In this document: piece by piece, positions 30,185 through 35,011 of the stretch
Layout of the letters: every line of letters starts with the position of its first letter
How positions within the stretch are numbered: position 1 is the stretch's first letter
Source: an uncultured Candidatus Rokubacteria bacterium
GTDB taxonomy: Bacteria; Methylomirabilota; Methylomirabilia; Rokubacteriales; DASRDR01
Direction of reading: 5' to 3'
Assembly (NCBI GenBank): GCA_963826115.1
Contig: CAWGVS010000004.1
Location: 32,001 to 96,000 of the forward strand
DNA: 64,000 bases
The notes under the pieces: model-generated
Database searches by the model: none
The model's input: only the letters and a program-made list of their open reading frames with translations
What the model was told of the DNA's origin: nothing
Position numbers and translations under genes: made by a program

Positions 30185-30706
30185 ATGCGGAGAGCGCGGA
30201 CGCTGGCCATGGTGACGCTGGTGGGGCTCGGGAGCCTGGGCGCGACGGAGCCACCGAAGGCGAGCGGCCCGGGCGCGGGCCCGCAGGAAGCCGAGGTGAC
30301 CGCGGTCGTGGTCGATCCCGGCACGCGGCAGCCCCTCGTGCTCCTCCAGGGCAAGCGCGACCGGCGGCCGCTGGCCCTCGCCATCGGCCCCTTCGAGGCC
30401 AACGGCATCGCGATCGCCCTCCAGCGCGTCACGCCCCCGCGCCCGCTCACGCACGACCTGTTCCTGAACGTCCTGGGCGACCTCCGCGCGTCCCTGAAGC
30501 GCATCGTGGTGACGGATCTCCGGGACGACGTCTTCTACGCGCAGCTCCACCTGGAGGCGGCGGGGGCGCAGCTGACGATCGATGCGCGGCCGTCGGACGC
30601 CATCGCGCTCGCGCTCCGCGCGCGCGTGCCCATCCTCGTCGAGGACCGGGTCTTCGACAAGGCGAGCCGACCCCTGCCCAAGGGCGGGGACGCGCCGACC
30701 CTCTGA
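30185..30706 (+). CDS. Bifunctional nuclease (DUF151) family protein
   Basis: IGPFEANGIA, RPLTHDL, FYAQL, IDARPSDAIALALR; TATACT at 30137 and AGGAGG RBS. Confidence 0.9.
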   Translation: MRRARTLAMVTLVGLGSLGATEPPKASGPGAGPQEAEVTAVVVDPGTRQPLVLLQGKRDRRPLALAIGPFEANGIAIALQRVTPPRPLTHDLFLNVLGDLRASLKRIVVTDLRDDVFYAQLHLEAAGAQLTIDARPSDAIALALRARVPILVEDRVFDKASRPLPKGGDAPTL

Positions 30707-30711
30707 CCCTC

Positions 30712-31668
30712 GTGCGCGACGGGTCCGGATCGAGCCGCGCGCTACCCGACGTCGAGTGGGCCGTCCAGCGCCGCCTGGACGACCTCATCGGCAAGCTCGA
30801 GCCCAAGTTCGGGGACCTCAAGGGCCGCGTCGAGGTCATCCCGCGGCCGAGCGTGACGTTCGCGATGATCGGCGGCGCCGAGGCCGCGAAGGCGGCGATC
30901 AGCGGCCTGTCCCACGCGCTCCGCACGCCCGAGCTCTACCGCCGCTGGGGCATCACGCCGCCGCGGGGCGGCCTCCTCTACGGCCCGCCCGGGAACGGCA
31001 AGACGCTCCTCGCGAAGGCCCTGGCGACCTTGTCCGAGGCGCTCTTCTACCACCTCCGGCTCGCGACCCTCACCTCGAAGGTCGGCCTGGCGGCGTCCGA
31101 GGTGATCAAGGAGGTCTTCCAGCTCGCGGGCTCCGAAGGCAAGGGCGTCCTCTACTTCGAGGACGCCGAGGCCCTCTCGTTCGAGCACCTCCTGCCTCCC
31201 GAGCGCGCCCGGGAGGCGGCGGCGCCGCTCCTGGTCGGCATCGGCGAGCTGCTCGACGGCCTCCGCGCCTTCCCGTCGCTCCTCGTGGTCGCGTCCACGA
31301 GCCGGCCGGACGGGATCGGCTCCATCCTGATCGCCCCCGGGCGGCTCGACCACCTGATCGAGGTGCCGCTGCCCGACGGCCCCGCCTTGCGCCAGATCGT
31401 CGAGATCCAGCGGAAGCGCGCCGAGGCGCTGGCCGAGCGGCCGCTGTTCGAGGCGATCGACGCCGAGGCGCTCGTGCCGCGGCTCGCCGGGATGAGCGGC
31501 GGCGAGGTCGCCGAGGTGATCCACCGCGCGCTCGAGGAGAAGGTCCACCAGTCGGGTACGGGGTCGGAGGCCGGTCTCGTCCGGACCGAGGACCTCCTCA
31601 CCGCCGTGGACGAGTCGCGCCGCGTGCGCGACGTCGTCGTCAAGATCCGCTACGGCCAGTACCTCTGA
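30712..31668 (+). CDS. Degenerate single-module AAA+ protein of the ARC/Mpa-like type ending in GQYL
   Basis: IGG, PPRGGLLYGPPGNGKTLLAKA (Walker A), altered Walker B YFEDAEAL, altered SRH, C-terminus YGQYL*. Confidence 0.85.
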   Translation: MRDGSGSSRALPDVEWAVQRRLDDLIGKLEPKFGDLKGRVEVIPRPSVTFAMIGGAEAAKAAISGLSHALRTPELYRRWGITPPRGGLLYGPPGNGKTLLAKALATLSEALFYHLRLATLTSKVGLAASEVIKEVFQLAGSEGKGVLYFEDAEALSFEHLLPPERAREAAAPLLVGIGELLDGLRAFPSLLVVASTSRPDGIGSILIAPGRLDHLIEVPLPDGPALRQIVEIQRKRAEALAERPLFEAIDAEALVPRLAGMSGGEVAEVIHRALEEKVHQSGTGSEAGLVRTEDLLTAVDESRRVRDVVVKIRYGQYL

Positions 31669-34017: not shown

Positions 34018-35011
34018 ATGATCGAGGTTGATCGCCTCACCAAGCGGTACGGGCCGACTACGGCCATCCAGGACGTCTCCTTCACGGTCGAGAAGGGCCA
34101 GATCGTCGGCTTCCTGGGCCCGAACGGCGCGGGGAAGACGACCACGATGCGCATCCTGTCCTGCTTCATGCCCGCCTCGGGCGGAACCGCGCGGGTCGCC
34201 GGCTACGACGTGTTCGAGCAGTCCCTCGAGGTCCGCCGCCGGATCGGGTACCTGCCCGAGAACGTGCCGCTCTACACCGACATGACGGTCGGGCGCGTAC
34301 CTCGACTTCGTCGCCAACATCAAGGGCGTCGGGCGTGGCGAGCGGCGGCGGCGGGTCGGCGAGGTCCTCGAGCGGTGCCAGATCCCCGACGTGCGCGAGC
34401 GGCTGATCGGGCGGCTCTCGAAGGGGTATCGGCAGCGGGTCGGCCTCGCGCAGGCGCTGATCGGCGACCCCGAGGTGCTGATCCTCGACGAGCCGACCAT
34501 CGGCCTCGATCCCAAGCAGATCGTCGGGATCCGCCAGCTCATCAAGTCGCTGGCCGAGGCCCACACCGTCATCCTGTCGACCCACATCCTGCCCGAGGTG
34601 TCGATGGTCTGCGAGGGTGTGATCATCATCAACCGCGGGCGGGTGGTGGCCTCCGGTCCCCTCGACCGCCTGATGGAGGAGCTCTCGCCCGTGTCGCGGG
34701 TCCAGGCGCAGGTCGAGGGCCCGCCCGAGCTCGTCGCGCAGTCGCTCCGGGCCCTGCCCGGGGTGCAGCGCGTGGAGACGCGGAGCGTCGCGGACGGCGC
34801 CGGCACCTTCGTCCTCGAGTCCGATCGCGGGCGCGACGTCCGCCGCGACGTCGCGCAGCTGGCCGCGCAGCAGCGCTGGGGGCTCCTCGAGCTCCGCGCG
34901 CTCGACCCCTCGCTGGAGGAGATGTTCATCCGCATCGTCGCCGGCGAGGAGCACGGGGACGCGCTGGCGGACGACGCCGGCGGCGTCGCGACCGAGGAGG
35001 TGGCGTCGTGA
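34018..35011 (+). pseudogene. ABC-2 type ATP-binding protein (GldA-like), frameshifted at ~34291 (possibly a sequencing error)
   Basis: First frame: GPNGAGKTTT...IGYLPENVPLY; after removing one G: AYLDFVANIKG...LSKGYRQRVGLAQAL..LILDEPT..STHIL. Confidence 0.8.

Follow-up and report, generated by a model that had tools for sequence, protein, structure and literature searches.

The 64,000-nucleotide stretch analysed here (the window), from an uncultured Candidatus Rokubacteria bacterium, carries a gene for a small protein with a single AAA module, which we call the mini-AAA. A preliminary description, made from the letters alone, had read this protein as a catalytically degenerate relative of the ARC/Mpa ATPases that keeps a C-terminal GQYL motif for docking on the 20S proteasome. 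Our analysis of the gene, of its family and of the genomes that carry it leads us to propose that these proteins are putative 20S caps devoid of N-domains, and that the version in the window has probably lost most of its capacity for ATP hydrolysis. The features at the locus are the following.

30185..30706, forward strand: bifunctional-nuclease-domain (BFN) gene (PF02577, E 1.5e-36), 5 nt upstream of the mini-AAA start
30712..31668, forward strand: mini-AAA gene, 318 aa, GTG start (open reading frame (ORF) list, PF00004 match, AlphaFold2 (AF2) model)
30748..30810, forward strand: N-terminal helix, residues 13-33 (DSSP on the AF2 model), then the conserved segment KFGDLKGRVEV
30982..31005, forward strand: intact Walker A GPPGNGKT, residues 91-98; G91, G94, G96 and K97 kept in 164/164 family rows
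31072..31098, forward strand: pore-loop-1 segment TSKVGLAAS, residues 121-129, with V at the aromatic position (Y/F in the references)
31147..31170, forward strand: Walker B VLYFEDAE, residues 146-153, with the acidic pair E-D against hhhhDE in the references
31291..31311, forward strand: sensor-1 region ASTSRPD, residues 194-200, with Ser for the canonical Asn
31327..31350, forward strand: second region of homology (SRH) LIAPGRLD, residues 206-213, with the first Arg finger replaced by Ala and the second Arg (R211) kept
31639..31668, forward strand: C-terminal tail VKIRYGQYL and stop; YGQYL is non-helical and follows the last helix, which stops at residue 313 (DSSP, AF2)

The motifs were called by alignment to p97 D1/D2 together with the genome's own ARC and FtsH paralogues, and residue counts come from a family sample of 164 rows in which the window's relatives are over-represented. 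The ORF list, Pfam and the alignments bear out the initial account of a single AAA module of 318 aa whose Walker A, GPPGNGKT, is intact, and the p97, ARC and FtsH alignments likewise uphold the swapped Walker B, the missing pore aromatic residue, the sensor-1 Ser and the lost first Arg of the SRH. The pore-loop-1 segment aligns to KYVGE/MFVGV of the genome's own ARC/FtsH. Position 208, that of the first Arg finger, is Ala in 142 rows, Arg in four and another residue in 18; R211 is invariant (164/164). The sensor-1 position is occupied by Ser in 135 rows and by Asn in 16, and the second Walker B residue by Asp in 112 and Glu in 49, with D or E found at position 150 in 162/164 rows and at position 151 in 161/164.

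In a Pfam scan of the protein the sole match is an AAA domain, PF00004, which spans residues 88-220 and scores 60.6 bits (cut-off 21.2), with no match to Prot_ATP_ID_OB or to PF10759, the profile of Bpa; a true ARC (L143) does give Prot_ATP_ID_OB matches in the same kind of scan. Among NCBIfam models the best match is PAN (TIGR01242/NF003069), at 132 bits with a second PAN model at 124.5, against a cut-off of 500; CDC48 (121 bits) and FtsH (91 bits) also stay far under their cut-offs. The ARC model TIGR03689 reaches 68.8 bits against a cut-off of 504.75, its best stretch covering only residues 46-106. P0124, an ortholog with canonical motifs, scores 185 bits with the PAN profile. An AF2 model built from 35 family sequences (predicted local distance difference test score, pLDDT, 91.9) starts with the single N-terminal helix (13-33), continues with the alpha/beta part of the AAA fold and the helical lid, and has its last helix at residues 292-313. 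The AAA fold begins at about residue 40, such that a lone helix takes the place of the coiled-coil and OB domains, for which, as first described, there is no room. Within this N-terminal region, G34 and G38 do not vary in alignment A1, and R20, L22 and D24 scarcely do. Among solved structures, the closest folds are those of the PAN ATPase domain, 3WHK/3H4M (template modelling score 0.89 on the target, root mean square deviation 2.6-2.8 Å), followed by p97 D2, the Rpt subunits and FtsH, with Foldseek E-values of about 1e-18 to PAN, p97 D2, Rpt and FtsH. The protein is a member of the classic clade of AAA ATPases. In its model the pore-1 segment is a single continuous helix, whereas that of P0124 is interrupted at the Trp; the modelled difference is small, and we place little weight on it.

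The ORF translation confirms the YGQYL end, and this end is conserved across homologs. In alignment A1, R313, G315, Q316, Y317 and L318 are invariant. Every one of 59 fetched orthologs ends in EK[IL]RYGQYL or VKIRYGQYL (57 in EKIRYGQYL), down to 44% overall identity; these were extracted by BLAST, include the window's own protein and span 10 of the 11 sampled genome families (numbered f1 to f11 below, f1 being the window's family and f1, f2 and f3 its order). Of the closest database proteins (66-90% identity), 120/120 end in GQYL, 119 of them in RYGQYL and one in GHGQYL. A profile of distant members recovers a second, canonical subfamily, whose best 119 proteins all end in GQYL (118 in EKIRYGQYL). 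Across the whole 6.24-Mb genome, 3/30,695 stop-to-stop frames of at least 100 aa end in GQYL, as against 0/30,695 for the other 23 orderings of G, Q, Y and L; hence, the GQYL end of the mini-AAA is beyond chance. The three are the genome's ARC (...TTGQYL), the mini-AAA and a mobile-element-like ORF of 173 aa on contig C2. ARC tails sampled in 20 genomes (L196-L215) are of the GQ(YL) type in 13 and of the GH(Y) type in seven, the latter in families f5-f9, though 18 of the 20 tail sequences end 1-2 residues short of the true end; the mini-AAA tail remains GQYL even where ARC has GHYL.

Mpa and PafE/Bpa use GQYL to dock on the 20S core and to open its gate, and the motif is needed on both to open the mycobacterial proteasome (PMC12288473, PMC6017811). 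It can do without its Gln, and what it shares with the HbYX motif is the penultimate Tyr (PMC12288473, PMC6017811).

The third GQYL ender, which proved to be a genuine ORF, is worth recording separately. This ORF (G000 C2:27511-28029; L154:1012-1533, forward strand) ends in PGQYL and matches no Pfam family. Its homologues in G164, G165 and G149 (about 60% identity) keep RPGQYL after a divergent, acidic and probably disordered linker. The gene is sporadic (4/61 genomes), multicopy in G165, and adjoins a DUF1257-like ORF and a gene for a 605-aa AAA protein. Taken together, its features suggest a protein of a mobile element that ends in a predicted Bpa-style proteasome-docking tail.

The mini-AAA family is widespread in one phylum. 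With an ortholog call of best E <=1e-45, orthologs are present in 115 of 151 genomes sampled across Methylomirabilota (these tallies include four genomes flagged as unpublished, G029, G047, G058 and G101): 9/11 in f1 with the window's genome included, 89/94 in f2, 1/1 in f3, 0/2 in f4, 2/18 in f5, 2/12 in f6, 1/1 in f7, 3/3 in f8, 6/7 in f9, 1/1 in f10 and 1/1 in f11. The named members among the 120 closest database proteins, of which few carry names, belong to Rokubacteria/Rokuibacteriota, and names in the second subfamily are Methylomirabilis, Methylomirabilales and one 'Acidobacteriota' metagenome-assembled genome. An exhaustive HMMER scan of 1.84 billion representatives brought up no more than five such clusters, namely P0122, P0124, P0125, P0142 and the fragment P0136, and each of them has the GQYL end. 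Roughly a dozen shorter rows align with the query in its N-terminal part alone and are uninformative on the tail. The next relatives in that scan are single-AAA proteins of 450-560 aa without such a tail, and then Cdc48-like proteins. In the ESM Atlas, Methylomirabilota is the commonest phylum in both clusters nearest to P0124. A maximum-likelihood tree from a quick search unites the family with a Shimodaira-Hasegawa-like approximate likelihood ratio test (SH-aLRT) value of 100 and branches in line with the genome families. In it, f1, f3 and f2, which make up the window's order, group together at the end of a long stem (support 100), and ARC and FtsH fall outside the family. On this tree and these searches, the family is monophyletic and seen almost only in Methylomirabilota/Rokubacteria. 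A recent duplication of ARC can be ruled out, as the mini-AAA is only 28% identical to the genome's own ARC over 207 aa and ARC lies outside the family in the tree. Our literature searches on GQYL with the proteasome, on pupylation in Rokubacteria and on the proteasome in Methylomirabilota listed no description of the family; likewise, no such family features in the accessible part of the paper on the ProEnd HbYX database, the supplementary tables of which may list such proteins.

The motifs vary by lineage. In f9 and f5 the ATPase motifs are canonical in all but one row: Walker A is GPPGTGK[ST] in f9 and GPAGTGKT in f5, Walker B LDE[IL]D, sensor-1 ASTNR[PI]D, pore loop 1 KW[YF] in f9 and KWR/KLR in f5, and the SRH LIRPGRID or LVRPGRID, with LICPGRLD in one of six f9 rows. 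The f9 pattern recurs in the canonical subfamily's 119 database proteins, with LFLDEID in 106, ASTNRPD in 108 and the first Arg kept in about 103. Families f6, f8, f10 and f11 have a mostly canonical Walker A, KW in the pore loop in all six rows with a variable second residue, DE in Walker B in five of six (HE in one), N, S, H or D at sensor-1, and G, Q or R at the finger. Over f5-f11 as a whole, the pore loop is K-W-Y/F in most rows. In f2 and f3, of the window's order, the last Walker A residue is often S and occasionally G, A or F, the finger position is Ala, the pore reads K-F-G (f2) or K-I-G (f3), Walker B is mostly DE, and sensor-1 is S, N or T. Finally, in f1 we find GPPGNGKT, Val in the pore, ED or DD in Walker B, Ser at sensor-1 and Ala at the finger. 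The notion that the ED Walker B might be a conserved trait of the homologs thus fails, since ED/DD occurs only in f1. By this distribution on a well-supported tree, the catalytic degeneration is stepwise and belongs to the window's order and family, rather than being a property of all members.

Within f2, four orthologs, L116, L124, L125 and L135 (in G117, G013, G017 and G144), have even replaced the Walker A Ser/Thr, reading GKA, GKG, GKA and GKF; judged from the motif, this is a further erosion of the nucleotide site with the tail unchanged.

The presumptive docking partner is encoded in the same genome. No pup, prc, paf or arc match lies on the window's contig (C4) except the mini-AAA's own weak AAA match, in keeping with the first reading of the window; elsewhere, contig C6 carries PafA, PrcA (332 bits), PrcB, Dop and ARC in one block, and Pup lies on contig C5. 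Thus, a complete set of Pup, Dop, PafA, PrcAB and an ARC ending in GQYL is present. Of the 151 genomes of the phylum, 120 gave a PrcA match and 108 an ARC match, and 21 PrcA sequences show 75% mean column identity. Lys52, which we take to be the alpha-pocket lysine known from the mycobacterial literature, is invariant (21/21). At the level of the phylum, these gene inventories indicate that the mini-AAA family goes with the 20S system. The genome also encodes HslV and HslU, which are separate from this system and intact; HslU adjoins HslV and ends in SRYIL. HslV as an alternative receptor was set aside, as it has its own adjacent HslU.

Two further observations concern the Pup-proteasome inventory. 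The window's genome has a third gene of the Pup-ligase family (C10:101822-103075), and second ARC matches occur in G052, G086, G088, G143, G147, G029, G121 and G044.

Comparison with known systems places the mini-AAA between several of them. With ARC/Mpa (TIGR03689) it shares the classic-clade AAA module, the C-terminal GQYL with its penultimate Tyr, and PrcAB in the same genome; it differs in having no coiled-coil, double OB, C-terminal beta-grasp or Pup-binding element, in being 318 aa against about 600 aa, and in that ARC is an outgroup rather than a sister in the tree. PAN is the best profile and fold match and also has a penultimate-Tyr tail directly after the last lid helix, but the mini-AAA stays under the PAN cut-off, has no N-terminal coiled-coil-OB ring, comes from a bacterium and, in this lineage, shows degeneration of its catalytic and pore motifs. 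The Bpa/PafE fold is a helical-bundle dodecamer. This fold is unrelated to that of the mini-AAA, which has no match to PF10759; the GQYL end is common to both, as would be the role of a hydrolysis-independent gate opener if the mini-AAA is indeed a pseudo-ATPase. Since the ARC and PAN cut-offs are failed, the N-domains and the ARC beta-grasp are absent and there is no homology to Bpa, the mini-AAA falls, by these comparisons, in none of the ARC, PAN and Bpa families.

More general parallels exist. In non-hydrolysing AAA rings such as NSF-D2, nucleotide binding is kept for assembly and the hydrolysis residues are degenerate; NSF-D2 differs in being a domain of a larger two-ring enzyme, rather than free-standing with a protease-docking tail. 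The archaeal network of HbYX AAA ATPases (Cdc48, AMA) resembles the situation proposed here in that several AAA rings with a common C-terminal motif serve one 20S core, and differs in having substrate-binding N-domains, active ATPases and a place in another domain of life (PMC3493965). Cpa, a Cdc48-like AAA protein of actinobacteria, has likewise been put forward as an additional interactor of a bacterial proteasome; however, it has two AAA rings and an N-domain, and according to the paper it is without the penultimate-Tyr motif and its last five residues are irrelevant to binding (PMC6017811).

Taking these observations together, we propose that the family consists of Methylomirabilota-specific single AAA modules, PAN/Cdc48-D2-like and without N-domains, in which EKIRYGQYL would be the docking motif for the 20S alpha ring. 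The protein would assemble into a nucleotide-dependent ring, the GQYL tails of which would enter the pockets between the PrcA subunits of the Pup-proteasome core, as those of ARC/Mpa and Bpa do; the docked ring would then cap the core and open its gate. The deep-branching members, with their Walker A/B, sensor-1 Asn, Arg finger and aromatic pore loop, would be minimal working unfoldases. The window's order lost the Arg finger, and in f1 the Walker B pair turned into ED or DD, sensor-1 into Ser and the pore aromatic into Val. The window's copy would still bind ATP, but is predicted to hydrolyse it slowly or not at all and to have no grip on substrates, because the trans-acting Arg, the sensor, a proper catalytic base and the gripping pore residue have been lost. 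Rather than an unfoldase, it may be an ATP-binding-dependent gate opener or regulator for unstructured proteins, or else a competitor of ARC at the alpha ring. In PAN, it is enough that ATP binds to some of the subunits for the ATPase to associate with the 20S core and open its gate (PMC4608255). We hold tail-mediated binding to the 20S core to be likely, and a strong reduction of hydrolysis in the window's protein, judged from its motifs, to be only slightly less so; the joint statement, that the mini-AAA is a PAN-like 20S cap without N-domains which here binds ATP and hydrolyses it poorly, is one we favour by a small measure.

Several observations weigh against this proposal. R211 and the acidic pair remain in the window's protein, the loss of hydrolysis in which is predicted from motifs. 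The gene lies outside the Pup-proteasome locus, its conserved neighbours being a major facilitator superfamily (MFS) transporter, the BFN-domain protein and a YbgC thioesterase, and it stands beside an ARC gene in only 1/59 loci (G124). Among the genomes of the phylum, PrcA and the ortholog are not associated: PrcA was found in 93/115 ortholog-bearing genomes as against 27/36 without an ortholog, and co-occurrence with PrcA or ARC at this level has no discriminating value. Both PrcA and ARC are missing from 16 of the genomes that have an ortholog. In G013, G017 and G115 (93%, 100% and 98% complete), HslV alone was found in the searches for proteasome folds and Pup ligases, PrcB is absent, and the tail is nevertheless kept. 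Viewed in isolation, these genomes would point to a different receptor. Further, most f5 and f6 genomes have a proteasome without a mini-AAA; hence, the mini-AAA is dispensable for the system.

The apparent absence of the 20S core can be gauged against Bpa, its dedicated partner. Using the PF10759 profile, validated on two Mycobacteriales genomes, we found Bpa homologues in 31/151 genomes (1/10 in f1 and 30/94 in f2), among them G013, G017, G115, G106 and G118, so that Bpa homologues are present outside Actinobacteria; the window's genome has none by this profile. Examples are G013:C37:3383-3784, G017:C33:97348-97737 and G045:C132:2411-2806 (L180-L189), and of ten fetched, nine end in GQYL and one in GHYL. 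PrcA was found in 22/28 of the genomes whose Bpa match exceeds the cut-off, the same share of about 80% as elsewhere. Since Bpa shows the same pattern, the missing 20S genes of ortholog-bearing genomes probably reflect assembly gaps, the single-locus Pup-proteasome block being often absent from drafts. These seemingly 20S-less genomes are therefore weak evidence against docking.

On the side of catalysis, the mini-AAA could still be a working, if slow, 20S unfoldase, with R211 and the E-D pair supporting hydrolysis and substrates threaded despite the aliphatic pore residue. Such a reading gains from the invariant Walker A residues and R211, from the acidic nature of the Walker B positions in nearly all 164 rows, from the sister family f2, which mostly keeps DE and a Phe in the pore, and from the strong purifying selection on the gene. 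Yet in f1 four separate catalytic and pore features are non-canonical at once, the loss of the Walker A Ser/Thr from some f2 orthologs fits relaxed catalytic constraint with a fixed tail, and the pore-1 segment is modelled as a continuous helix; we consider this alternative unlikely.

The locus itself invites another alternative, which we regard as similarly improbable, namely that the mini-AAA is a non-proteasomal AAA chaperone or regulator, the C-terminus of which contacts the product of a neighbouring gene, HslV or its own ring. An MFS-BFN-miniAAA-YbgC-(FTHFS)-ABC block is conserved in the window's order, although BFN is absent from about eight f2 loci, and prcAB are unlinked to it. The presence of intact-tailed orthologs in genomes without a detected 20S gene, the lack of a PrcA association within the phylum and the presence of HslUV, whose HslU also has a Tyr-containing tail (SRYIL), would be in line with such a function. 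However, outside the window's order the neighbours differ and synteny is lost while the tail stays. The genome's other GQYL ends occur only on ARC and the one mobile-element protein, GQYL recurs in the phylum on Bpa, which shows the same apparent, probably assembly-derived, gaps in 20S genes, the family has essentially been seen only in a phylum that carries the 20S system, and HslV has its own intact HslU adjoining it.

Expression and coding status were also considered. The G+C content by codon position in the ORF is 0.75/0.47/0.98, a typical coding pattern, and its ratio of nonsynonymous to synonymous substitution rates (dN/dS) is 0.14-0.21 against five same-genus orthologs, climbing with distance as dS saturates. 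Thus, the gene is under purifying selection and is not a decaying copy; nor is the degenerate state itself a sign of decay, since it is stable across the whole order. The preliminary description had reasoned that canonical orthologs would mark the window's copy as decaying: distant orthologs are indeed canonical (f5 and f9, with one exception), but decay does not follow in view of this selection. A scan around the gene returned no promoter-like site and one terminator-like site, far downstream. Soil RNA-library contigs of 150-230 nt are 96-97% identical to parts of the gene, its 3' end included, with several bins uncovered; as they come from two soil assemblies that are probably one data set filed twice, and DNA carry-over is possible, they are weak evidence of expression. 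That the gene is decaying or a mis-called ORF, as the several degenerate catalytic motifs and the long open frames common on all strands of this 72% G+C window might suggest, is refuted by the conservation and selection data (the codon-position pattern, the dN/dS values, the orthologs in 115/151 genomes and the pLDDT of 91.9, with the RNA contigs as a minor point), and we give it next to no credence.

Some neighbourhoods of the mini-AAA merit description in their own right. In the window, the downstream ABC-transporter ATPase gene (34018-35011, forward strand) is split over two reading frames, with positions 2-77 of the ABC_tran profile in the frame of 34018 and positions 101-136 in that of 34391, which points to a frameshift or assembly error near 34300-34390. 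In G124, contig C1 (L143:6175-9002) has an ARC gene (TIGR03689, 703 bits) that ends in GHYL and is convergent with the mini-AAA gene, 110 bp apart from it and away from that genome's prcA. In f6 and f8 the neighbours are a ThiS-like small protein, a ThiF-type E1, a weak Prok-JAB match and a second AAA gene, of 455 aa (L138:3943-6928, L139:65-1549, L144:3988-5285, L148:7510-8546). The ThiS-like protein ends in ...EFVRLAGEKG followed by 0-13 extra residues, and the gene content of this neighbourhood is similar to that of a ubiquitin-like conjugation cassette. In all, 27/151 genomes have the E1, none of them from the window's order, and it adjoins the mini-AAA in 5/12 genomes that have both; as no E1 ortholog was found in the window's genome and adjacency is limited to these five, it was excluded from our explanation. 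The E1-like matches contain a single in-frame TGA in G105, G048, G051, G036, G020, G056 and G140, and a TAG in G060 and G034; these stops lie near the N-terminal end of the match, probably because the start of the query ORF overruns the upstream gene.

In the literature consulted, only two GQYL-bearing partners of the bacterial 20S core are established, Mpa/ARC and Bpa/PafE, both studied in Actinobacteria (PMC12288473, PMC6017811). We tentatively suggest that GQYL-tailed caps include a third class, not described before and present in Methylomirabilota, which would have passed from a minimal unfoldase to a pseudo-ATPase in the Rokubacteria-type order; the latter version would use ATP solely for assembly and docking, and either open the 20S gate without hydrolysis or block ARC. 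Were this the case, it would be the first natural dead-ATPase regulator of a proteasome, and part of a wider GQYL economy to which ARC and Bpa belong, as does even a protein of a mobile element, the target of which may be the host proteasome. It would also be the smallest natural proteasomal AAA ring, without a coiled-coil/OB collar, and thereby a probe of the need for N-domains. The family would offer a natural series from canonical to degenerate ATPases with a fixed docking tail, in which to test if nucleotide binding alone suffices, and as all the parts can be expressed recombinantly, this question is directly testable. More generally, a third family would show that a network of caps can exist around a bacterial proteasome just as it does in archaea.

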